Shown piece by piece: positions 2,141-29,978 of a stretch of DNA of 64,000 bases. The notes under the pieces are model-generated. The model had not been told where the DNA came from, searched no databases, and saw only the letters and a list, made by a program, of their open reading frames with translations. A program made the position numbers and the translations under genes. The stretch's first letter is position 1; each line of letters opens with the position of its first letter. This stretch comes from Escherichia phage vB_EcoM_EC001. The DNA lies in sequence record MN445185.1. The stretch is one strand, 5' to 3'.

Positions 2141-2216
2141 AGGAAAGTGACGCAATTGGTAGCGTACCGGTCTCCAAAACCGGCTGTTTAGAGTTCGAGT
2201 CTCTACTTTCCTGCCA
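2141..2216 (+). tRNA. tRNA-Trp (anticodon CCA), CCA end encoded
   Basis: Hand-folded 76-nt cloverleaf: acceptor aggaaag/ctttcct 7 bp, D stem acgc/gcgt, anticodon stem ccggt/accgg with loop ctCCAaa, T stem tagag/ctcta, T loop ttcgagt, discriminator g, CCA. Anticodon and T arms closely match E. coli tRNA-Trp. Confidence 0.8.
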
Positions 2217-3300: not shown

Positions 3301-3373
3301 GGCTTTGTAGCTCAGGTAGGTAGAGCAGCCTCTTCGAGGAAGGTCGCTGGTTCGAGACCGGTCAAAGCAAGAG
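3301..3373 (+). tRNA. tRNA-like element, possibly a degenerate tRNA or pseudogene (anticodon arm does not fold canonically)
   Basis: Canonical D arm gtagctcaggtaggtagagc and T arm gctgg-ttcgaga-ccggt, acceptor 6 of 7 bp, but only 19 nt between D and T arms so no standard anticodon stem-loop. Confidence 0.35.
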
Positions 3374-16805: not shown

Positions 16806-18659
16806 ATGGTAAAAATCGTTGACTCTAACAACAACGCTCAGCAGAACAACACTCAGACTCAAGACACCGCACCACTGGGCGGTCTGGGCAACGAGACTGT
16901 AAAAGTGCAAACTGCTGTGCCGGGTACTTCTACTGTCAGCCAATTCGATAACGCATTTGGCATCCGCAACATCAGCACCTATGCAATGCACTTCACCAAC
17001 CTCCTGGATGAGCTGAAGAAAAGCAACGAATACCTCAACGCATTCCGCTGGGGCACCATCGTCGGCGTGGGTAACGAAATGGGTTCCGCGGCGTATGTCG
17101 CAGGCCAATGGCAGGGCCACTGGCTGTATGGTATCATCTTCTTTGAACGCGGTCAGTCTCTGCGTCTGAAAGAAACTACCAACAACGGCCAGGAAGACTA
17201 CTACACCATCACTGAACTGTTCAACAAAGACGTGCTGGCAGTAGTACAGAAAAACATCATGGAAGCGCATGGTCTGACCAATGCGAACTTCATGATCATC
17301 AACTCCGTACCAGACCTGGGTAAAGTTCTGGATGCTGAGTGGGCACGTACACTGATGGGTCAGATGATGATGGGCATCTTCGGTCGTATCGCAGGCTACC
17401 TGGGTACGCTGAACCTGCGTAAGCATGACCGTTATCAGGCCGCAGTAATGCCGCTGGAAGATGGTGCGGTTGTTGATGCTAACGGCCACGCACAGCGTGC
17501 TGATTTCGCAATCACCGTTGAGCACAGCCCAAGCAACGTAACCGATGCCACTCCGACTCTGCTGGACACCAATCAGGTACAGGTGTATCCGCGTGTATCC
17601 GGTACCGGTTTCGTCAATATGCGTTTCACCGGTCAGAAGCCTGTCGTTAACGGCGTCTACGACCTGAAACAGCTGCAGGCTGAAATCGTAGTAAGTCTGA
17701 TCGATTCTCAAACTGAAGGTGCAATGGCACCGTATGAACGTCAACTGCTGCTGCTGGCTGCATTTGCAGAAATCGCGGCAATCGGTGGCTGGCGTGACCT
17801 GTTTGTGAAACGTCTGAACAAACAAGATCGCAAGTTCTCCCGTGTGGCAGAATACCTGTCCTGGGGTGCTGACGCTCGTCCTGATGTATCCAAAATCGAC
17901 GGTAGCCGTGAAGCTATCGAAGGTTGCCTGGATATGTTCGCACCGCGTGAAGCAGCACTGGTAGTTAGCCATCGTGCCGGTAACGGCCTGGGTGGTCTGT
18001 CTACTTTGCTGTCTGAAATTGCGGTCGGTTACGACAACTCTCTGAAACAGCTGCTCGCTATTCTGAATTCCATGTCCCCGCGTGATCAGAACGGCGAAGT
18101 TGTTGCAGCGACCAGCTTCACTGCAGTATTTGCTTCTGCACTGAAAGCACAGCTGGGCGATGCCTTCAATGGTACCATCCATTGCAGCCACATCGTGAAA
18201 GCAGCCGTACCGACTGTTTCCGGTGTTTACACCGGTACTGCACAGAAACGTAGCTTCCAGGATATGGACCTGATTTCCGTTGTTACCAAACTGGGTGATA
18301 ACGCGAACGACGTCTATAGCTACCTGAACGCACAGTCCTACAGCCACCGTGAACTGAACGAGCGTCAACAGCGTATCTACATGCTGAAACTGGCCGCTTC
18401 TCTGTTCGCATCCAAAGCACCGCAAGCTACCGGTGAATCTCTGGATATGGCTATCAACCCGATCTTCGGTAAATGCCTGCTGGACTTCGTCCGTAACAAC
18501 TGCACCTGGTCTATGACTGGTGTAAATGCCTACAACACGATGGCGACCTCTCTGTTCTTCAACAACGGTGGGGAAGACTTCACGCTGTCTGGCAACGGCC
18601 TGTCTGCAAGCGGTTCCGATTTCGGTCTGGGCGTGACTCTGAGCAACTTCAAACTGTAA
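16806..18659 (+). CDS. abundant protein with host-like codon bias; candidate phage-nucleus shell protein (chimallin-like), function unconfirmed
   Basis: 617-aa ORF with strong preference for ctg/ccg/ggt/cgt/aac codons, two promoter-like motifs upstream, TAAGGAA RBS, low-complexity N-terminal tail, immediately upstream of the RNAP beta-prime N-terminal gene. Confidence is for the CDS, not the function. Confidence 0.7.
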   Translation: MVKIVDSNNNAQQNNTQTQDTAPLGGLGNETVKVQTAVPGTSTVSQFDNAFGIRNISTYAMHFTNLLDELKKSNEYLNAFRWGTIVGVGNEMGSAAYVAGQWQGHWLYGIIFFERGQSLRLKETTNNGQEDYYTITELFNKDVLAVVQKNIMEAHGLTNANFMIINSVPDLGKVLDAEWARTLMGQMMMGIFGRIAGYLGTLNLRKHDRYQAAVMPLEDGAVVDANGHAQRADFAITVEHSPSNVTDATPTLLDTNQVQVYPRVSGTGFVNMRFTGQKPVVNGVYDLKQLQAEIVVSLIDSQTEGAMAPYERQLLLLAAFAEIAAIGGWRDLFVKRLNKQDRKFSRVAEYLSWGADARPDVSKIDGSREAIEGCLDMFAPREAALVVSHRAGNGLGGLSTLLSEIAVGYDNSLKQLLAILNSMSPRDQNGEVVAATSFTAVFASALKAQLGDAFNGTIHCSHIVKAAVPTVSGVYTGTAQKRSFQDMDLISVVTKLGDNANDVYSYLNAQSYSHRELNERQQRIYMLKLAASLFASKAPQATGESLDMAINPIFGKCLLDFVRNNCTWSMTGVNAYNTMATSLFFNNGGEDFTLSGNGLSASGSDFGLGVTLSNFKL

Positions 18660-20076: not shown

Positions 20077-20453
20077 ATCTCTGACCGTGTGATCAAGATG
20101 GCTAACGGTTCGAAAAGAGCCCCATCGGACGGGAAACCTCTGATGCGTATTCTCCTGAAATGCTGGGAAACCCTAAAGCGTATCTACCAGAAATGGGGAC
20201 GAAAGTCTGAAACAACAGATACGATGGCCTACGCTAAACAATACTGCTAACGGTTGTGATAATGGGTAATCAGCAGCGAAGCCTCGTGAGAGGAACGTTC
20301 AACGACTATCGCTGAAATGCGAGTAGGGGTCCCAGTGGACTTCGAAGTGGGAGAACACCTAAGGCGATAGCTATGGTGAAGATATAGTCTGTGCCTTATC
20401 GAGAGATAAGGAGGGTGTCTTAGCACACCTGCTGTATACGGAAACGGTATACG
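20077..20453 (+). ncRNA. group I self-splicing intron (no internal ORF), boundaries +/- about 10 nt
   Basis: Conserved core elements R (GTTCAACGACTA, 20297..20308) and S (AAGATATAGTC, 20379..20389) with complementary gacta/tagtc. Frame changes between flanking coding segments; beta-prime homology stops at CSLR and resumes at DKQDFDGDQ. Confidence 0.75.
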
Positions 20454-21757: not shown

Positions 21758-22431
21758 TGAGCCAGGAACCTACATTTAACGGTGTACCGTTAAGTCAGAT
21801 GAATGAGCAGATGCGCTTTGAGTATAACAAACTCAAAGAGATTGAAAAGGATTTGGCGGAAAGCCAGAACGTCTGTAGTGTCTTCACCGAAGCACAGTTC
21901 CGTCGACAGGGCTTACCACTGCTGTCCGGGATGCTGGATGGTACTTTTAACGAAGAGACCTGGACGGCTTACGTAGGAAGTCCATTTGTACCCCTACAGA
22001 TTGTGGACGATGCTGATAACAGCAAACTGCTATTTACCATCCCTGCTCTGTTGAACACCGGTCGCTCGTTAATCACCGTTGACGGCGAACCCTCCCTCTC
22101 CGATGAGACTGAGTACATCCGTCGTCAGGTTGATGTGATTGCAACCGTCGGTGAAACCCAGATGTACAAGATGATCGATTACACCTTAACCGGGATCGAA
22201 AATATGTCTCTGGCTGAAAATTCAGTTCGTGCGAAGTACATTATTGACTTGCTGAACTGGATTTTCCGACGCTACGGCGTGGGCGGTCAATTGCCGTATC
22301 CGGAAGGGTTGGTTGAATACGTCGATAAAATTACTGGCGGTAAAAACACAGCGACAGCTGCAGAGACCTCGGTGCAAGCCCCAGCTCAAACGCAGCCAAT
22401 CGTAGGGATCGGTGATGGAGAAGATTACTAA
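21757..22431 (+). CDS. hypothetical protein
   Basis: 224-aa ORF, start overlaps previous stop. Confidence 0.55.
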   Translation: MSQEPTFNGVPLSQMNEQMRFEYNKLKEIEKDLAESQNVCSVFTEAQFRRQGLPLLSGMLDGTFNEETWTAYVGSPFVPLQIVDDADNSKLLFTIPALLNTGRSLITVDGEPSLSDETEYIRRQVDVIATVGETQMYKMIDYTLTGIENMSLAENSVRAKYIIDLLNWIFRRYGVGGQLPYPEGLVEYVDKITGGKNTATAAETSVQAPAQTQPIVGIGDGEDY

Positions 22432-23563
22432 ACCTCCTAAAAAACCAGAAGGTGTTAAGCGCCTTTTGAACACTAACGATATCCATTTGTTGCATAAACG
22501 TGTGCCCACTTGGCACATCGTGGATGTGATACGTGAGGTACTCATTAGCTGCGAAAATACGCTTGACGCCTTTTATATAGCAGGGGATTTATTTGATGAT
22601 TCCCGACATCTTCGCCAGGAAGATTCTCAAGAAGCTGTGGGCTTCTTGACGTGGTTGCTCCAGTGGTCTAAGGCCACTAATACCGCAGTTCGCATCGTTG
22701 AGGGAACACCGTCCCATGACCACGGCCAGTCCAAAATAGTTGAGTCGCTGAACATCAGTATAGGCGCAGACTGTTTGTATTTGGCAGGGATCGGGATATT
22801 TTACGATCCGGCTCTCGATGCGATGGTAGGTTGGGTGCAGGACGAATATAAAGCTGCTGGCGTCGATGAAATTAATGCTGCTGCCACTGAGGCAGAAATG
22901 GCAGAACTGATGGCGACACGAGGCTTGGAGAAGTTAGACTTTATCTTCATGCACGGCTGCTTCCAGTTTCAACTCCCTGTCGAGTCCCCTCGTTCTTTCC
23001 ACGAGGAGTTCTGGTTGCCGAGAGTCAAGCACCTGATATTTATCGGGCACGACCATCGACCTAAAGAATTAGACAAGATAAGAGTTGTAGGTAGTCCTGA
23101 GCGACTATCTCAAGGTGAAGAGGAGGACAAAGGCGTAGCTCTTGTCGATTTCACCGATACGGTTGCCAGGGACTATTTCCTGGTTAACCCACGCGCGTGC
23201 CCGCAGAAAAAGATTCGGGCACAGGAAGACTTTGATGCGCAGTTAGCAGCTTGTCTTTCTGCATTAGAATACATCGACAATCATCCCTCGTCCGCTATTG
23301 GGCGATTTGAAGTCGAGTATTACGCAGGTTCACCGATGGCCGAATACGTCAGTCGGTGGAAAAAAGAATACACGTTCCACATATCTGGAGAACGTGTGCG
23401 CTCCTCTGAAGAAGAGGAGTTGTTAGTGAAGAGTTTTTCGAACGAAGCCCCAGTGTACGAAAAACCTACTCCTGAGAACTTCGAACGGTTGGTTCTCGAA
23501 GAGCTAACATCAGTGAAGTACGACCCTGATGTTGTTACTGCAATCATTAGGAAAATAGAATGA
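22415..23563 (+). CDS. calcineurin-like metallophosphoesterase (SbcD/Mre11-type nuclease or phosphatase)
   Basis: Ordered motifs TNDIHL (D-x-H), IAGDLFD (GD-x2-D), VEGTPSHD (GNH[DE]-like), FIFMHG, IFIGHDH (GH-x-H). Confidence 0.6.
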   Translation: MEKITKPPKKPEGVKRLLNTNDIHLLHKRVPTWHIVDVIREVLISCENTLDAFYIAGDLFDDSRHLRQEDSQEAVGFLTWLLQWSKATNTAVRIVEGTPSHDHGQSKIVESLNISIGADCLYLAGIGIFYDPALDAMVGWVQDEYKAAGVDEINAAATEAEMAELMATRGLEKLDFIFMHGCFQFQLPVESPRSFHEEFWLPRVKHLIFIGHDHRPKELDKIRVVGSPERLSQGEEEDKGVALVDFTDTVARDYFLVNPRACPQKKIRAQEDFDAQLAACLSALEYIDNHPSSAIGRFEVEYYAGSPMAEYVSRWKKEYTFHISGERVRSSEEEELLVKSFSNEAPVYEKPTPENFERLVLEELTSVKYDPDVVTAIIRKIE

Positions 23564-24396
23564 ATCCAATCAGTGTTGATCGCACTTTCGGGTTCTATTC
23601 AGTGTCAATCGCCAGTTCGCTGGCGTTTGAAGGTCTGCTGCATACCGGCGAATACGCCGACTGGAAAGGCGAATTGCCTATCCATTCCTATCAGGAAATA
23701 TACCTGAATCTCCGGACATTGTTCCGTAACGCCTTCTATGCGTTTGAAGAGAATAGAGAACGGTTAACACCCGACGTGATGCTAACATCGATTGAAGAAG
23801 ATATTAATAATCTTACGGCTACCGCGAGAGCGGTAGCCCCTTCGGTGTTATGCGTTCCGTACCTTTGTAGCTATCGTAGCGCTAACAAAGTGTTTCCCGA
23901 AGCCTCGTTCAAAAACATTGCAGGCGGTCAGGATAAGATGACGCCAAACCAGCTGCACTATAATGCACTGGAACACGACACCTTAAAAATGTACGGTGAG
24001 AAACACGAAAATGACTTCCGTCAATTCGATGTTTTCCCAGAGGGTAGCCGCGACACACTGTTACTGACCCACATGCCAGCTGATCTCCTGGCACGTAAAG
24101 ATTTCCCTAAACTGGGTTTGTTGGAATCGCACACCGGTAAAGTGAAAACACAACTGGAGTGGTACACCAAACTTAACGGGAAACCCCAACATATTCCGTT
24201 TAACAAAGCGTTCCTGACGTTGTTTGGCGACGGGATAATGTTTTCACCCCTCGATCGCAAAACGCGTGGGGTGGTGTTAAAAACCGCAGAGAAGTACAGC
24301 TGGAAACAGGATACCACAATGGACCGTATTTATAACTGTCTAAAACTGGTGAATGAGCCATTTGTAATTGAACTGCTCCGCAGGCTTATGAAGTAA
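23560..24396 (+). CDS. hypothetical protein
   Basis: 278-aa ORF, ATGA overlap with previous gene. Confidence 0.55.
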   Translation: MNPISVDRTFGFYSVSIASSLAFEGLLHTGEYADWKGELPIHSYQEIYLNLRTLFRNAFYAFEENRERLTPDVMLTSIEEDINNLTATARAVAPSVLCVPYLCSYRSANKVFPEASFKNIAGGQDKMTPNQLHYNALEHDTLKMYGEKHENDFRQFDVFPEGSRDTLLLTHMPADLLARKDFPKLGLLESHTGKVKTQLEWYTKLNGKPQHIPFNKAFLTLFGDGIMFSPLDRKTRGVVLKTAEKYSWKQDTTMDRIYNCLKLVNEPFVIELLRRLMK

Positions 24397-24461
24397 GTTA
24401 AAATTTACGTTAGTGGGACATCATGTGTGAACCACTAGACTGCTTTTCCGAAAAGGATGAA

Positions 24462-25115
24462 ATGATGATTAACCAAGAAATTTTCAAAGACAAATGGCTT
24501 TACCCGCAGACCGAACCGGATCAGCAAAACCGTACGCGTAAACTCAACATCGAACCGAATGATTTCAACGGTGATGTTGAAACTATGAAGTTTAGCTACT
24601 CCTTTGGTAAGGGCGAAGGTCTCTATTTCTCTGCGCCGATTACGGTTTGCCGTACCATTATCGAAGCTCTGCAGGATTGTCTGCGTAAGAGCGAAAAGAG
24701 TATGCTGAAGTTTACTAACGAAAACGGCAACAAACCGCCCGTTAGTCTGATTGTTGGCCGTGAAGACAACCTGGTACCGTTCATCGCTATTGCCGGTGAA
24801 ATCCAGGGCGTTGGTGCCCGCCAGAAGAAGTTCTACTTCTCCTACCCGAAAGGTTTCCGTATTTTCCGCGACGGCCAGCAGGTTTCTGATTTAGAACTTG
24901 CTGAGCGCTGTGCACGTGCGTTTATCACTAACTTCGAGAAGTTCTTACAGAACCTGGAAGAGAAATATAAGCCGCGTGAATTCCAGCAAGGTGGTGGTAG
25001 CTTCGGTCGTGGCGGATACGGCGGTGGCCAGGGTGGCGGTCAGCGTAGCGGCGGTTATCAACAGCAACAATCTGCACCTCCAGCAACCACTGATTCTTAC
25101 GACGAATTCCTCTAA
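24462..25115 (+). CDS. abundant protein with SSB-like C-terminal tail (Gly/Gln-rich linker plus acidic tip); possible ssDNA-binding protein or SSB-tail mimic
   Basis: Host-like codon usage; ends GGGSFGRGGYGGGQGGGQRSGGYQQQQSAPPATTDSYDEFL, resembling the E. coli SSB tail (shared QQSAP, acidic aromatic terminus). Start chosen at ATG after AAGGA; track ORF starts 24423. Confidence 0.5.
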   Translation: MMINQEIFKDKWLYPQTEPDQQNRTRKLNIEPNDFNGDVETMKFSYSFGKGEGLYFSAPITVCRTIIEALQDCLRKSEKSMLKFTNENGNKPPVSLIVGREDNLVPFIAIAGEIQGVGARQKKFYFSYPKGFRIFRDGQQVSDLELAERCARAFITNFEKFLQNLEEKYKPREFQQGGGSFGRGGYGGGQGGGQRSGGYQQQQSAPPATTDSYDEFL

Positions 25116-25200
25116 GAAACAAAATAAAAAATACGCCCAAGGGAAACCTTGGGCTATTAACGCTTATGCGTGGTCCTGCAACACACACTGTAAGAAGATT

Positions 25201-25221
25201 GAGATAGATATTATCTCAGTG
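25201..25221. promoter_or_regulatory. promoter-like palindromic motif copy 4 (GAGATAGATATTATCTCAGTG)
   Basis: About 30 nt upstream of ATG 25251. Confidence 0.45.
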
Positions 25222-25250
25222 CAATCGACTATTCGCGGAGTTCAACTATA

Positions 25251-26885
25251 ATGAAAATTACGAAGATTAAAGACCGGATGACAATCGAGCATCACGGTCA
25301 AGAGGTCTCATTTATTGGCTTACGTTATCGGAAGGATAACAACGCACCCGACTACATCACTGTTAAAGGTAAACAGATTGCACGCGACAACATTCTCTTC
25401 ATGGAATTACAACGCGTGTGGGATTATTTAACGCCAGACGAACAAGATGAACTGTTCATGGCGTATCTGATGCTGGACGAGCTGGCAAACGAATCGACGG
25501 AAACGCAGCGTAAGCACATGCCGAAGATTGTGCAGACGATTGCGAAGTTCCACAAGGCCGAAGTGTATCGTAAGCTGTATCCCATCGATAAGCTGTGGAT
25601 TCCGCAGAACATGGAAGATACGCACGATGAAATGAACAGTAATTATCCGGAAGCGATGACGTACATTCGTCCGGACTATTACGAGTTGTTGATACTGGTC
25701 CTGATGATTAAACCGTATATTCCGGTGTTCCTTACCATGGGGACGTTCCCGATAGGTAAGAACTTGCCAATCGAAACACATCGGAAAATGGTGTACAATC
25801 TGACATACTGTCTGGAGATGCTTCAAGACACAGAAGTCATGTCTTTACCTGCTATTCCGAAACTGCGTGGGTTCCTACAGACAGTGATGGAAAAGGTAGA
25901 AAAAGAACTGGCAAACAAAGGTACGAACAGCACCAGTTTGTCGGTACTGGCTACGGTGCGGGGCTATGGCACGGATATGATGGAAGATTATATCCTGGCG
26001 TATGCTATTATTAAATTGTTGGCTGTCCGTGAAGTCGGTGGTGAATTACCGGTTGAAATCATGGTTAACAACAATATCGTCACCGGCATGTATTTTCTGG
26101 TTAAACAAGAGATTGAAACAGGTTTTGCAAACAAAATCTCTAACCAGCCGGTGCTGTTGAAAGCGCATCCAGAAAGTGTGGTATTCAATGGCGAAAAGGG
26201 CAAGATAAACGCCATGGATTTGGTGCAGGCACGTTCTCCTGCCCAGATGAAAGAATACGTCCGTACCGAGTACGTATTTAAAGAATACCGCTCTTTCTTG
26301 AAAACAATGCGTCTGGATAATGCCGCTCCAGCAGATGTTAAGTTATTGATTGATTCGCAACTGGCAACACACGACGGTCCTGTCTATACATTGCACGAAT
26401 GGTTAGTCGCATTAGCACTCCATCGTAGCGCGCATTATAAGACGTATACTGAATGTGGACCAGAAGCGTTTCGCTACGGTATGGCGTTGGCGCAGGCAAC
26501 TTATCTCAATTATGGAATGTATGACGTTGCGCAACTGTTAAGTTGCAATATGGTGCGTTCTGAGATGTCTGCCGGTTATGCAGCCGATCCAATTCGATCT
26601 GAACTCAAAGCAGATTTAGATAGATATTATCTTCAGGAGTATCGCAACCCGCGTAATCTCGAACCGCAATCTACACCACGGGAATCACTGACCTTGTTAC
26701 ACAAGGATCACATCAACCCGTATCTGTTCCATCTCAGGGCTACACCAGAAGCAGCTGCGCTGCTGAAGTGTGAGACGGATCAGCCAAACTATATACCTCA
26801 CTTGTCACTGCACAATAGCCTGGCGGAGTTTATGGTGTTGAATGCACGTCGCAAGTTAGAAGAAGTTGAATGGTTTAATTCTTAA
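25251..26885 (+). CDS. hypothetical protein
   Basis: 544-aa ORF downstream of promoter-like motif. Confidence 0.65.
   Translation: MKITKIKDRMTIEHHGQEVSFIGLRYRKDNNAPDYITVKGKQIARDNILFMELQRVWDYLTPDEQDELFMAYLMLDELANESTETQRKHMPKIVQTIAKFHKAEVYRKLYPIDKLWIPQNMEDTHDEMNSNYPEAMTYIRPDYYELLILVLMIKPYIPVFLTMGTFPIGKNLPIETHRKMVYNLTYCLEMLQDTEVMSLPAIPKLRGFLQTVMEKVEKELANKGTNSTSLSVLATVRGYGTDMMEDYILAYAIIKLLAVREVGGELPVEIMVNNNIVTGMYFLVKQEIETGFANKISNQPVLLKAHPESVVFNGEKGKINAMDLVQARSPAQMKEYVRTEYVFKEYRSFLKTMRLDNAAPADVKLLIDSQLATHDGPVYTLHEWLVALALHRSAHYKTYTECGPEAFRYGMALAQATYLNYGMYDVAQLLSCNMVRSEMSAGYAADPIRSELKADLDRYYLQEYRNPRNLEPQSTPRESLTLLHKDHINPYLFHLRATPEAAALLKCETDQPNYIPHLSLHNSLAEFMVLNARRKLEEVEWFNS
26612..26636. promoter_or_regulatory. 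promoter-like motif copy 5, internal to the 3-prime end of CDS 25251..26885
   Basis: AGATTTAGATAGATATTATCTTCAGG about 260 nt upstream of the next gene. Confidence 0.35.
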
Positions 26886-26897
26886 GGAGTATTTAAA

Positions 26898-28598
26898 ATG
26901 CAGCTTGTAAATCTACTGATGTATCCGGTCTACGATGTTCCAGAGCAAGTTCGTCGCCGCATCGGCTTTAACGCATCGACGGGTGCACTGGATGACTTAG
27001 CAGCAGCGGTTGAACTGGGCGGGGAAAAAGCTGTGGGAACACAGCAGTATCAAGAAGCGTTATCTGCCATCGTGGGCTTCGATGGCACCCAGAATGGTTT
27101 TGAGCGTCCATTCATCAACGTGTCCGATGATGACAATCGTCCTGTACAGTTCCAATGGGAATCACGTGATACCGGTATCTTTAACTTCGTGGCGGTGTTT
27201 ATTGCTAAACCTCTGAATGCAACACGCACTCAGGAAACGCAATACATCGTCTCCGGTTATACCAGTCAGGCAGAAACCAGCCTGGGTAGCCTGCTGCCGG
27301 ACGATATGGTGTTGTACATTAACGACATCTACGGCTTACAGGCAACGTATACACACGATGCCCTGGGCGGCAAAACATTGAACCCAGACTCATTCCGTCT
27401 ACTGGATAACTACGTTTTATCGAAAGCGCTGTCTGTTGAAGGTCAAACAGAAAGTACGGTAGATATCATTTCGATCGCGAAAGCAGCGGACATGGTAAAA
27501 CGTATTGAAATGAATAGCGGTGAGAAGTTCGTCCCAACGAGCGACTCTGTGCTATCCGCAACCAGTAGCTCTGCACCACAGTTGATGGTATCCCAACTCC
27601 AGCGTCCAGAAAACTACGTATCTGCAATCAGTAATGCGTATCTGGCAAGCTCTGGGGTAGATACCGAACTCGGTAGCGTGGAAAGCTTCTTTGCAGGTAA
27701 TAACTCCATCGGCGTTGAATCTGAATTGAAGCAGCGTGGTGTTATCCGTAACTACAGCAACCACGAACTGATTGCTGCGATGCGTCAAGCACTCCAGAAC
27801 GGGATGTCTGATGTATCTGGCGGTTGGAAAGCAACCAGTAAGGCGACGTTCCGTTTGGCTGATTTGCGTAATGCGATTGTCAACCCAATGCGGTTGGATG
27901 AATGTATCCGTGAATCGCTGGCGCTGGCAAGTCGCCGTGGGTTGGGTGCAGGGCTGGTTAACCAAACCGACCACTGGATTGGACGTAATGGCTTCTCCAC
28001 GCAGGGTAGTCTAGTTGCGTATGATCTGGCTATGTCTATCGGGCCGATTATGTCACGTAACCTGATTGGTGAAGTGAGCTTTGTCTTTGATAACCGCAAC
28101 ACAGATATCATGATAGAGCCTACGCTGGAAGTTATTCCTAACTCAGTCAGCAGCATCACGCACCATCAGTTACCTGCTGCATTAGGTCGTCGTTTCTTGC
28201 AGAACATGAAAGAAGCGATGGTTCAGGTTACTAAACATAACCATATTCGCTGCCACATGCTGGTCACCGCATTGTTGGGGACCGTTACTCGTATTGAAAT
28301 CCGTGTCGACGACGAACCGCTGGAATATTACACCTACGCGTCGTTTATGCAATTCCGTCTCCATACCGGCAACACCACCGATCTCAAATACGTTGGTGAG
28401 CTGGCACAGAACACCGCAACGCTGCTGAAAGCCGTGGAAGAAGGTTATACAGAATTCGAGAAAGGCCAAGGCCGGGGTCGAATGCTATCTAACATTCCAA
28501 CTAACACAGGTGGCTTAGATCCTCTTGGAGGTCTTGACCTGGGTGGTGGCTTAGGCGGTATAGGCGGAAACGGACTCGGCAACGGTCTCATTGATTAA
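26898..28598 (+). CDS. hypothetical protein with glycine-rich repetitive C-terminal tail
   Basis: 566-aa ORF, TAAGGAG RBS; tail GGLDPLGGLDLGGGLGGIGGNGLGNGLID. Confidence 0.65.
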   Translation: MQLVNLLMYPVYDVPEQVRRRIGFNASTGALDDLAAAVELGGEKAVGTQQYQEALSAIVGFDGTQNGFERPFINVSDDDNRPVQFQWESRDTGIFNFVAVFIAKPLNATRTQETQYIVSGYTSQAETSLGSLLPDDMVLYINDIYGLQATYTHDALGGKTLNPDSFRLLDNYVLSKALSVEGQTESTVDIISIAKAADMVKRIEMNSGEKFVPTSDSVLSATSSSAPQLMVSQLQRPENYVSAISNAYLASSGVDTELGSVESFFAGNNSIGVESELKQRGVIRNYSNHELIAAMRQALQNGMSDVSGGWKATSKATFRLADLRNAIVNPMRLDECIRESLALASRRGLGAGLVNQTDHWIGRNGFSTQGSLVAYDLAMSIGPIMSRNLIGEVSFVFDNRNTDIMIEPTLEVIPNSVSSITHHQLPAALGRRFLQNMKEAMVQVTKHNHIRCHMLVTALLGTVTRIEIRVDDEPLEYYTYASFMQFRLHTGNTTDLKYVGELAQNTATLLKAVEEGYTEFEKGQGRGRMLSNIPTNTGGLDPLGGLDLGGGLGGIGGNGLGNGLID

Positions 28599-28610
28599 GG
28601 ATTATTAACC

Positions 28611-29978
28611 ATGAAATTGATTGAATTCTACCGTTCGTTTCTGACCTCGCTCGGATACGGATTCGAAGGTGACATGCTGACTATCGATGATGGTCATCCG
28701 GCAATGTTCACCTACAACAAAGTGAAGCGCCGCTTGGTGCTTCCAACTGCAGCGATGATTAAGCGTGGGTTGGAAGATGACGAAGGTAGTGAATGTCATG
28801 CGTTCCACCCACTGTGTGAATCGGTACTGGCTGGCGAATCTGGAACGATTCGTTTCCTGAAGAAAGCCATCAGCGCGAACCTCTTCCTGAAAAGCTTCGA
28901 GTTAATCGATGCGATTTTGGAAACAGCAGCCGAAGGAAAAAATATCCGTCTGGCATCGTACAAGAAGTTTTTAAGCGATGTGGTTTGTGCTGACCTGAAA
29001 GATCCAACGATGGATAAGAAACTGGTTCAGAGCTGGCACGCAGTGAAGAACTACGTTTACGGGTTGCTGGAAGAAGATAAAAAGACAAAGATCACCAGTA
29101 TCTTCATCTCCAGCGATATGACCATTGAAGGTATCAAATATATCCGTGTGGCGAACTACAAACACATGTTTGAAGAAGAGTCACTGGATGGTACGGCAAC
29201 ATTCTTCGGTGCCAAGCTCCAGCGTAAGCAGGATAAGGTTATTATCTTTAACCTGCTAACTGCAGTGTTTGGTTGGTATCCTTCGGTTACGGGTTCTAAC
29301 GATCCGCGTCCGTACTTCGGTTCTTTGGCACGCGGTTGGGCACAATACGTGACCAACTACAATCAAGTGGTTCGTGGTCTGCGTGACCACACTCCACTGC
29401 GTCCGTTAGAAGAAGAATGGATTGGCCAACTGGATAACATGAGCGTTTATGATAACGTTATCCAAACTCTGCCGTATAATACCGGCCCACGTAACGATCA
29501 GGCAACAGACACCACCGCAACGGATTTCCGTATCGGGCGTACACCTGCCGGCACAAAGCCGGTCGTTGCTTTAGCTTCTCAACAAGCTCCGCAGGAAAAT
29601 CTTGATCTCAACGATCCGGTAAACTATTTCCGTGCGAAGAAAGCGCAACAGGCGTCTTCAGCTAATAGCTTCAATGCGTTAGCACCGAAGATTCAGGAAG
29701 CGCTGCGTGAGAACAACGGCCATTTACCGAAAGGGACAATTAAAGAACTGTCTCTCGGTGAAGCGCTGCGTGGTAATGCGGTGACGAAAGAAAGTGGTCT
29801 GGGTTCTGGTTTGCTGGGAAGTAGTAATAATCTCTTGGGGGGTAGCACGCAGTTGGGCGGCGGTAGCACCAACCTCTTAGGAGGGAGTAGTGACGTGTTA
29901 GGTGGTCTGGGTGGTTTAGGTGGCGGAAGTAGCAGCAGTTTAGGCAACCTACCATTCTCATCAGCTAATTTACGTTAA
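28611..29978 (+). CDS. hypothetical protein with glycine/serine-rich repetitive C-terminal tail
   Basis: 455-aa ORF; tail SGLGSGLLGSSNNLLGGSTQLGGGSTNLLGGSSDVLGGLGGLGGGSSSS. Confidence 0.65.
   Translation: MKLIEFYRSFLTSLGYGFEGDMLTIDDGHPAMFTYNKVKRRLVLPTAAMIKRGLEDDEGSECHAFHPLCESVLAGESGTIRFLKKAISANLFLKSFELIDAILETAAEGKNIRLASYKKFLSDVVCADLKDPTMDKKLVQSWHAVKNYVYGLLEEDKKTKITSIFISSDMTIEGIKYIRVANYKHMFEEESLDGTATFFGAKLQRKQDKVIIFNLLTAVFGWYPSVTGSNDPRPYFGSLARGWAQYVTNYNQVVRGLRDHTPLRPLEEEWIGQLDNMSVYDNVIQTLPYNTGPRNDQATDTTATDFRIGRTPAGTKPVVALASQQAPQENLDLNDPVNYFRAKKAQQASSANSFNALAPKIQEALRENNGHLPKGTIKELSLGEALRGNAVTKESGLGSGLLGSSNNLLGGSTQLGGGSTNLLGGSSDVLGGLGGLGGGSSSSLGNLPFSSANLR

Follow-up and report, generated by a model that had tools for sequence, protein, structure and literature searches.

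What is the function of a phage protein that ends like a bacterial single-stranded DNA-binding protein (SSB)? This question is raised by a gene on the plus strand of a 64,000-nucleotide stretch of Escherichia phage vB_EcoM_EC001 (MN445185.1), which will be referred to as the window and to which all positions refer. The gene (24462 to 25115) encodes a protein of 217 amino acids (aa). An earlier note, made from the sequence by eye, had pointed out an SSB-like Gly/Gln-rich tail with an acidic end and proposed either a divergent phage SSB or a protein mimicking the tail of the host SSB. We consider it very probable that the gene product is the ortholog of ChmC/Imp6 in the clade of Salmonella phage SPN3US, that it combines a Whirly fold with a disordered tail and acts in the roles described for its orthologs, and that its tip represents a motif of the SSB C-terminal (SSB-Ct) type.

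Assignment to the ChmC/Imp6 family

The window protein matches phrog_3284 over its full length (5.8e-65), and PhiKZ gp67 belongs to the same PHROG (6.1e-80). Comparison of an alignment of the window clade (15 sequences) with one of the PhiKZ clade (23 sequences) by hhalign yielded a probability of 97.8% (E 1.2e-12) over residues 85-165, and a joint profile retrieved both clades, the relatives of PhiPA3 gp61 and a protein 98% identical to Goslar gp176. Profile searching, which the earlier note had named as a check, thus leads to the ChmC/Imp6 family. PhiKZ gp67, PhiPA3 gp61 and Goslar gp176 have been described as ChmC (Enustun et al. 2024, PMC11077065). The second name of PhiKZ gp67 is Imp6, under which it has been reported to bind the import factor Imp1 (gp69) directly (Kokontis et al., 10.1101/2024.03.27.586873), and a review treats ChmC and Imp6 as the same protein.

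Gene order points to the same family. Six consecutive genes of the window share both their PHROGs and their order with PhiKZ gp65-gp70 and are followed by RNA polymerase (RNAP) genes and a helicase; for the SbcD-like gene of this block (phrog_100) the assignment is by PHROG in the window and by annotation in PhiKZ. The window protein is homologous and syntenic to PhiKZ gp67, PhiPA3 gp61 and Goslar gp176. Shared PHROG, profiles and synteny together identify it as the ChmC/Imp6 ortholog of the SPN3US clade and the second gene downstream as the ortholog of the nuclear import factor Imp1/PicA (Table 1). The same gene order was found on a 130-kb metagenomic contig around a family member (P0081) that ends in SYDEDIPF, where chimallin (PF25677), nvRNAP (non-virion RNA polymerase) and more genes are followed by genes for 389-aa and 279-aa proteins, ChmC, and then genes for proteins of 551, 480 and 448 aa.

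Megablast of positions 22000-29000 retrieved 25 jumbo phages at at least 99% identity, corresponding to the genus Seoulvirus (SPN3US). The window coordinates match Escherichia phage vB_EcoM_Lh1B (OK428535.1), and the window represents the left end of an SPN3US-like phage. The ortholog in Erwinia phage Asesino is 80% identical to the window protein, and both SPN3US and Asesino are listed in a 2026 review as experimentally shown to build a phage nucleus (PMC13282480).

With the characterised ChmC/Imp6 proteins (PhiPA3 gp61, PhiKZ gp67, Goslar gp176 and 201phi2-1 gp123) the window protein shares PHROG 3284, the gene position, the predicted Whirly fold and a disordered C-terminal tail of 40-70 aa consisting of a Gly-rich part and an acidic end; they likewise come from nucleus-forming jumbo phages and show a strong codon bias consistent with abundance. 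However, identity to the characterised proteins is only ~20%, and compared to the PhiKZ clade the window protein is 30-45 aa shorter and has no N-terminal extension. Its linker is Gly/Gln-rich with RGG/YGG elements, whereas characterised ChmC linkers are Asn/Gly-rich, and its tip follows [FY]D[DE]F[LV] instead of FD[DE][DE][ILM]PxF. A Pfam scan of the window protein gave no real match; a sub-threshold match to FoP_duplication (E 0.021) was rejected as a composition artefact of the RGG/Gly-rich linker. Among PDB sequences, neither the protein nor the clade profile found anything but noise from linkers or low-complexity segments and from designed proteins. By this assignment the 'hypothetical protein' SPN3US_0029 becomes a ChmC/Imp6 ortholog, as do its counterparts in over 30 jumbo phages of Salmonella, E. 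coli, Proteus and Erwinia, and the orthologs of Imp1/PicA, gp68 and gp70 are placed next to them.

Coding sequence and codon usage

The open frame extends from 24423 to 25115 on the plus strand, as seen in the list of open reading frames (ORFs) and in the raw sequence, and no long competing ORF is present on the opposite strand. The ATG at 24462 (MMINQ...) corresponds to the start annotated in SPN3US for the 'hypothetical protein' ACQ60_gp237 / SPN3US_0029. The ATG at 24465 (MINQ...) is an equally plausible start with better spacing, at which several homologs begin, and translation probably does not start from the in-frame ATG at 24423. Aligned with the SPN3US DNA, the gene shows 6 substitutions, all synonymous, and one Gly-codon indel in the linker, as would be expected if the protein is constrained and its linker tolerates changes in length. 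The identity of 92-93% to the SPN3US and SPFM orthologs obtained by tblastn is probably an artefact of low-complexity filtering and of the linker indel, since the DNA differs by these six synonymous changes and one indel.

The fraction of E. coli-optimal codons (Fop) was 0.69, which ranks the gene 6th among the 57 genes of the window (z = +1.6). Arg is encoded by CGT or CGC in all 13 cases, and Gly by GGT or GGC in 24 of 25. High abundance, which had been predicted from codon usage, is thus modestly supported, and the rank is consistent with reports of ChmC among the most abundant non-structural proteins.

Predicted fold of the N-terminal domain

For residues 11-170, an AlphaFold2 (AF2) model built on 38 family sequences reached values of the predicted local distance difference test (pLDDT) of 87-96, and values below 50 were obtained for residues 176-217. 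The order of elements in the folded part is beta-beta-beta-alpha, then beta-beta-beta-beta-alpha, and in this model residues 1-175 are predicted to form a Whirly fold. The best structural match was StWhy2 (3n1h, 8.4), followed by PBF-2/Why1 (1l3a, 8.2), Trypanosoma brucei MRP2 (2gia_A, 7.2), Pur-alpha (3k44, 6.5) and T. brucei MRP1 (2gia_B, 6.3). Foldseek against BFVD retrieved uncharacterised proteins of 210-267 aa from Klebsiella phages Eowyn and Miami and from Pseudomonas phage EL. A Whirly/PUR fold has been reported for PhiPA3 ChmC, too (PMC11077065). The observation of the earlier note that the N-terminal domain shows no OB-fold pattern was correct, as there is no Pfam SSB domain and the model matches Whirly-fold proteins; the OB fold that structure prediction might have revealed did not appear. 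With a Whirly instead of an OB fold, the protein falls outside the SSB family.

StWhy2, PBF-2/Why1, MRP1/MRP2 and Pur-alpha are binders of single-stranded nucleic acids, as the window protein would be by its predicted fold, and the Whirly and MRP proteins are tetrameric, as are the ChmC orthologs. StWhy2 is an organellar single-stranded DNA (ssDNA)-binding protein, and plant Whirly proteins possess a short acidic/aromatic C-terminal segment that has been proposed to auto-regulate DNA binding. In contrast to these structural relatives, to which it shows no detectable sequence similarity, the window protein comes from a phage and has a long tail of low complexity. No Pfam Whirly or PUR match was obtained for the window protein or for the ChmC of PhiKZ, PhiPA3 or the Goslar-like phage, and the relationship is structural only.

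The tail and its likeness to bacterial SSB

The SSB-like Gly/Gln-rich tail and the acidic end are present exactly as quoted in the earlier note, and the tail is conserved. The product ends in ...QQGGGSFGRGGYGGGQGGGQRSGGYQQQQSAPPATTDSYDEFL, also written ...GRGGYGGGQGGGQRSGGYQQQQSAPPATTDSYDEFL, with the final residues ...TTDSYDEFL. Possible 'stickers' in the linker are two Arg, two Tyr and one Phe, and a QQSAP element stands at the linker's end, just before the tip. Within the tip, D214 is conserved in the window clade, with Asp at position -4 in 22 of the 26 clade members. The last 42 residues consist of 33% Gly and 17% Gln and are poor in Pro, compared to 26% Gly, 17% Gln and 15% Pro in the tail of E. 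coli SSB (NC_000913), which ends in ...SRPQQSAPAAPSNEPPMDFDDDIPF. When the last 30 aa were aligned with the last 30 aa of E. coli SSB by the Smith-Waterman method, a score of 36 was obtained compared to 20.1 ± 3.8 for 300 composition-preserving shuffles (z = 4.2), none of which reached 36. A phmmer comparison of the window protein with E. coli SSB was not significant (E 0.36 among 817 ORFs), and the tail DNA, searched by blastn in 5,426 E. coli genomes, gave chance matches in djlA only. A recent capture of the tail from the host ssb gene was rejected, as there is no DNA similarity to E. coli ssb; an ancient capture and convergence cannot be told apart from the sequences as the origin of the tail.

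In its design the window protein corresponds to bacterial SSB (E. coli SSB, PF00436), with a single-strand-binding domain (predicted here), a disordered Gly/Gln-rich linker and an acidic tip with a hydrophobic or aromatic end. The QQSAP element before the tip is shared with E. coli SSB, bacterial SSB and ChmC orthologs are both homotetramers, and tail-dependent phase separation has been reported for E. coli SSB as well as for a ChmC ortholog. Nevertheless, the window protein differs from bacterial SSB by the predicted Whirly fold, the Pro-poor linker and the tip DSYDEFL, which lacks Ile-Pro-Phe, and a ChmC ortholog prefers single-stranded RNA (ssRNA), unlike bacterial SSB. Among phage proteins, T4 gp32 and T7 gp2.5 are abundant early SSBs whose acidic C-termini mask the binding surface and recruit replication proteins, and T7 gp2.5 requires its terminal Phe. 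Both are OB-fold proteins of replication and recombination, whereas the documented role of ChmC concerns mRNA and the nuclear shell.

Tail and tip across the family

For tip statistics, 94 full-length family members were collected and their last nine residues compared. Basic residues are absent from this segment in 92 of the 94 proteins, at least two acidic residues are present in 88, and 92 carry a hydrophobic or aromatic residue within the last two positions, with Phe as the terminal residue in 61. The family linkers contain 35% Gly, 18% Asn, 12% Gln, 8% aromatic, 6% basic and 3% acidic residues. Four forms of the tip can be distinguished. The bacterial SSB tip itself, a terminal [DE]x[ILVMF]P[FYW], occurs in 15/94 members (SFDDDLPF, SYDEDIPF, GDDIPF, DDDFPF), and the same tip with one inserted residue in 23/94, among them PhiKZ (AFDEDMPSF) and PhiPA3 (GFDDEIPNF) as well as others ending in GFDDDIPDF. 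The 201phi2-1 clade carries GFGDVMxF (GFGDVMAF), and the SPN3US clade including the window protein carries [FY]D[DES][FMY][LVIF] (DSYDEFL). Overall, a terminal [ILV]-P-F or [ILM]-P-x-F is found in 38 of the 94 proteins.

The shuffle test against E. coli SSB yielded a median z of 3.5 for the family and 9.2-9.5 for the best members; one such high-scoring tail (P0101) ends in ...RQQQSAPSMDFDDIEF. The tail resembles the bacterial SSB tail across the whole ChmC family, and in several lineages the likeness is close to exact. When the folded domains were ordered by a crude midpoint-rooted neighbour-joining tree, proteins with the canonical tip fell between the SPN3US and PhiKZ clades. As far as the sequences go, this suggests that the canonical form ...DD[ILV]PF is ancestral and that the tip of the window clade has drifted to ...[FY]D[DE]F[LV]. 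SSB is not mentioned in the ChmC/Imp6 literature searched (the ChmC paper, the Imp6 preprint and reviews), and no paper naming both Chimalliviridae and SSB was found in the literature searched. The family-wide SSB-type tip is a new point beyond this literature and provides a testable lead.

Proposed function of the window protein

The family has already been characterised experimentally. PhiPA3 ChmC is a homotetramer that binds ssRNA with a dissociation constant (Kd) of 58 nM and ssDNA with a Kd of 184 nM, crosslinks to phage mRNAs in enhanced crosslinking and immunoprecipitation (eCLIP), and is among the most abundant non-structural proteins (PMC11077065). Its condensates need the C-terminal 48 residues, which are also needed for localisation to the nuclear shell; deletion of the tail abolished the condensates and left the tetramer and RNA binding intact. 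The protein is proximity-labelled by the nuclear UvsX, and part of it is cytoplasmic (PMC11077065). In Goslar, ChmC forms puncta inside the phage nucleus, and its knockdown resulted in smaller nuclei with less DNA, retention of mRNA in the nucleus, globally lower levels of phage proteins and ~4% plaquing; a tail-less Goslar ChmC supported nuclear growth and did not rescue the titre (PMC11077065). PhiKZ gp67 and Imp1 form a stable complex of about 2:1 (10.1101/2024.03.27.586873). The published roles of the family are thus mRNA binding and export and the partnership with the import factor Imp1, not replication (PMC11077065, 10.1101/2024.03.27.586873).

By analogy to these orthologs, ChmC/Imp6 of the window phage would be an abundant, early-expressed protein of a nucleus-forming jumbo phage. 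Its Whirly domains would assemble into a homotetramer and may bind ssRNA, and more weakly ssDNA, on a basic beta-sheet face with little sequence specificity, and the Tyr/Arg-studded Gly/Gln/Asn linker may form condensates with RNA. The protein is expected to concentrate at and inside the nuclear shell and to bind phage mRNAs as well as Imp1, which is encoded two genes downstream. In this way it might support mRNA export and shell-associated traffic, working together with Imp1 and the transcription/export machinery. The last 5-9 residues may act as a short linear motif of the SSB-Ct type that serves in docking or in auto-regulation. In the case of docking, the terminal hydrophobic residue and the carboxylate would enter a pocket with a basic rim on a partner protein, which is most likely encoded by the phage; in the case of auto-regulation, the tip would fold back onto the nucleic-acid-binding surface of the protein itself. 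We infer a motif of the SSB-Ct type because generic charge leaves the near-invariant terminal hydrophobic or aromatic residue and the recurrent [ILV]-P-F unexplained. The tip differs in form between lineages, which speaks for co-evolution with a partner encoded by the phage or with the binding surface of the protein itself and, at least in the window clade, against mimicry of an invariant host tip. The phenotypes of tail deletions could then reflect a missing docking motif instead of missing condensates.

Several points weigh against this interpretation. BLASTP of the window protein against PhiKZ gp67 was not significant, and homology thus rests on profiles and synteny; BLASTP was also not significant for the corresponding pairs of chimallin (ChmA) and Imp1 (gp69), indicating that the clades are very distant and that pairwise comparison is too weak. 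A HMMER profile of the N-terminal domain searched against 1.84 billion representatives yielded 15 matches, all from the subfamily on the SPN3US side and none from the PhiKZ clade. What is said here of the SPN3US clade on RNA binding, tetramers, condensates and binding of Imp1 is transferred from orthologs of ~20% identity and is to be read as probable by analogy. The residues mutated in PhiPA3 (K30, K48, K59, R35, R44, R63) are not reliably mappable onto the window protein, because hhalign aligned residues 85-165 only. In the published view the acidic end is a generic 'electronegative cluster' and not a docking motif. Finally, the position of the FLAG tag on gp67 in the Imp1 pull-downs is ambiguous in the text (10.1101/2024.03.27.586873), and if it was C-terminal, Imp1 binding would need no free C-terminus.

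Alternative explanations

In the published view, the tail has no specific partner: the linker only makes weak multivalent contacts for condensates, and the generic charge of the acidic end maintains solubility and limits the unspecific binding of RNA. We regard this view as the most serious alternative, though an unlikely one: the PhiPA3 tail deletion abolishes condensates and neither the tetramer nor RNA binding, the linker composition fits sticker-and-spacer sequences that phase-separate, and linker length and sequence vary freely. However, it leaves the position-specific conservation of the tip unexplained (Phe end in 61/94, hydrophobic last two positions in 92/94, Asp at -4 in 22/26, P-F or P-x-F ends in 38/94), and the similarity to the SSB tail exceeds that of composition-preserving shuffles. 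The mimicry of the host SSB tail proposed in the earlier note appears improbable to us; displayed on an abundant phage protein, such a tail would capture, sequester or relocate host enzymes that interact with SSB, such as ExoI, RecQ, PriA, RecJ and Pol III chi, thereby crippling host DNA metabolism or bringing selected enzymes to the shell. Near-exact bacterial tips do occur elsewhere in the family, and GFDDDIPDF of the PhiKZ clade is one residue away from DFDDDIPF; moreover, part of ChmC is cytoplasmic, where host proteins are, and the import machinery bound by ChmC/Imp6 imports at least one host enzyme, TopA (10.1101/2024.03.27.586873). The window clade itself fits poorly, as its tip DSYDEFL lacks Ile-Pro-Phe while its hosts E. 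coli and Salmonella keep DFDDDIPF (the clade also infects Erwinia), and the 201phi2-1 clade ends in GFGDVMAF. Drift of this kind, differing between lineages, is more easily explained by co-evolution with a phage partner than by mimicry of an invariant host motif, the missing DNA similarity to E. coli ssb speaks against a recent capture, and the part of the ChmC pull-down results considered here names ribosomal proteins and RNAP subunits and highlights no host SSB partner (PMC11077065). A highly divergent OB-fold SSB, the primary reading of the earlier note, had the resemblance of the tail in its favour; with no Pfam SSB domain, no phmmer match to the E. coli OB domain and a Whirly fold in the AF2 model, it was rejected on structural evidence and is extremely improbable.

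A different question is whether ChmC fills a gap in the replication machinery. SSBs were not detected in phiKZ-like phages, which was called surprising (Kazlauskas et al. 2016, PMC4889955), and a classic OB-fold SSB was described as a feature of another jumbo-phage group and not of the PhiKZ group (Iyer et al. 2021, PMC7824862). The 266 RefSeq features of SPN3US likewise include no SSB; named among them are parts of a DNA polymerase, two helicases, an SbcD-like nuclease, a DprA-like protein and a protein with an SMC domain. A phmmer search with E. coli SSB or with the OB domain alone gave a best E of 0.34 among the 817 SPN3US ORFs of at least 60 aa; very divergent OB folds could escape this search. 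Among these 817 ORFs, the ortholog of the window protein is the only one that joins a low-complexity linker with an acidic/hydrophobic tip. With its conserved SSB-type tip, ChmC, the second most abundant non-structural protein, is a concrete candidate for this gap and may bear on the absence of a recognised SSB. ChmC could be the missing replicative or recombination SSB, beside or instead of its mRNA role; a Whirly tetramer would have replaced the OB-fold SSB and retained or acquired the linker and tip of the SSB type, and ChmC would cover ssDNA in the phage nucleus and recruit replication and recombination enzymes of the phage by its tip. Besides the gap itself and the unique combination of linker and tip, this idea draws on the canonical tips (15/94, and 23/94 with a one-residue insertion), on tail z values with a median of 3.5 and up to 9.5, on StWhy2 as best structural match, and on the ssDNA affinity (Kd 184 nM), UvsX proximity-labelling and abundance of PhiPA3 ChmC as well as the intranuclear puncta and the knockdown nuclei with less DNA in Goslar (PMC11077065). 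We nevertheless consider it doubtful, as the affinity of the ortholog for ssRNA is three times that for ssDNA, the ortholog crosslinks to phage mRNAs, and much ChmC is found on the shell and in the cytoplasm; knockdown traps mRNA and lowers all phage proteins, which alone could explain less DNA, and tail-less Goslar ChmC still supports nuclear growth. Marginally more credible, and put forward as a tentative proposal, is that ChmC/Imp6 is a chimera of a Whirly tetramer and the linker and tip of bacterial SSB, with an ancestral ...[FY]D[DE]D[ILV]PF acting as SSB-Ct docking motif, and serves as the single-strand-binding hub of nucleus-forming phages. If so, ssDNA and nascent RNA inside the nucleus would be covered by ChmC, and its tip would attract enzymes of the phage or imported ones of the host; the window protein would represent a variant of its lineage, with a tip that co-evolved with its partner. 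Of the divergent phage SSB suggested by the earlier note, the binding of single strands, demonstrated for the family member PhiPA3 ChmC, and the conserved SSB-like tail have stood, whereas the OB fold has not. The interpretation of the earlier note is partly supported: by analogy to its characterised family, the window protein is a probable single-strand binder with an SSB-like tail, but it is not a protein of the SSB family.

Conserved gene block and other features of the window

The features of the ChmC/Imp6 locus are summarised in Table 1. The gene directly downstream of the ChmC/Imp6 ortholog corresponds to PhiKZ gp68, which was described as a subunit of the nvRNAP (10.1101/2024.03.27.586873).

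Table 1: Positions of the ChmC/Imp6 gene, its parts and its neighbours in the window
Feature	Position	Strand	Details and evidence
ChmC/Imp6 ortholog, coding sequence	24462..25115	+	217 aa + stop; ORF, SPN3US annotation, phrog_3284, hhalign
Shine-Dalgarno-like AAGGA	24453..24457	+	read from sequence, upstream of the start codons
Whirly-fold single-stranded nucleic-acid-binding domain (predicted)	24462..24986	+	residues 1-175; AF2 model
Disordered Gly/Gln-rich linker QGGGSFGRGGYGGGQGGGQRSGGYQQQQSAPPA	24987..25085	+	residues 176-208; pLDDT <50, composition
Acidic/hydrophobic tip TTDSYDEFL	25086..25112	+	residues 209-217; clade pattern [FY]-D-[DES]-[FMY]-[LVIF], right-aligned profiles
SbcD-like nuclease, PhiKZ gp65 equivalent	22412..23563	+	phrog_100, 3.3e-64; annotation
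PhiKZ gp66 equivalent, directly upstream of the ChmC/Imp6 ortholog	23560..24396	+	278 aa; phrog_3229 in both proteins
PhiKZ gp68 equivalent, nvRNAP subunit, directly downstream of the ChmC/Imp6 ortholog	25251..26885	+	phrog_3209 in both proteins
PhiKZ gp69 equivalent, Imp1/PicA nuclear import factor	26898..28598	+	phrog_3141 in both proteins
PhiKZ gp70 equivalent, last gene of the gp67-70 locus	28611..29978	+	455 aa; phrog_3520 in both proteins
Stem-loop just past the ChmC/Imp6 stop codon, core GCCCAAGG-GAAA-CCTTGGGC	25130..25158	+	-22.5 kcal/mol, z = -5.2

The stem-loop behind the ChmC/Imp6 gene is identical in SPN3US. Owing to an A-run in front of the hairpin (a T-run on the minus side) it reads as an intrinsic terminator of the minus strand; all neighbouring genes are located on the plus strand, and the stem-loop is a probable transcript 3' end or stabiliser.

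Low-complexity tails were also observed at the ends of the window orthologs of Imp1/PicA and gp70, which are Gly/Leu-rich (...GGLDPLGGLDLGGGLGGIGGNGLGNGLID and ...LLGGSSDVLGGLGGLGGGSSSSLGNLPF...). The tail of PhiKZ gp69 is Gln/Pro-rich and that of PhiKZ gp70 rich in Met, Gln, Pro and Asn, so that the composition is lineage-specific. The equivalents of gp67, gp69 and gp70 thus carry low-complexity, probably disordered tails within one gene block, which bear a loose resemblance to nucleoporin repeats.

The strongest E. coli-type codon bias of the window (Fop 0.79) was found for an ORF of 617 aa at 16806..18659 (+). It directly precedes the nvRNAP beta' gene; in Asesino (gp039/gp040) and PhiKZ (gp54/gp55), chimallin (ChmA) occupies this place. 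The PHROG of the window ORF differs (8316 vs 4795), and it matched neither Chimallin_Phikzvirus nor any other Pfam family; based on its position the ORF is a candidate for ChmA.

Two tRNA genes were detected by Rfam on the plus strand at 2141..2213 (63.6 bits) and 3301..3370 (33.6 bits). The first 3 kb of SPN3US are annotated with tRNA-Trp and 'tRNA-OTHER', probably the same two genes as judged by annotation. Of 35 related phage records, only 5 cover an intron stretch at 20090..20411 (+) without a break, the Salmonella phages 1252 and SPLA3 among them. The SPFM phages and SEGD1 match it in two pieces with ~48% coverage and thus seem to be without the intron. An nvRNAP gene of PhiPA3 also carries a self-splicing intron (PMC11077065).

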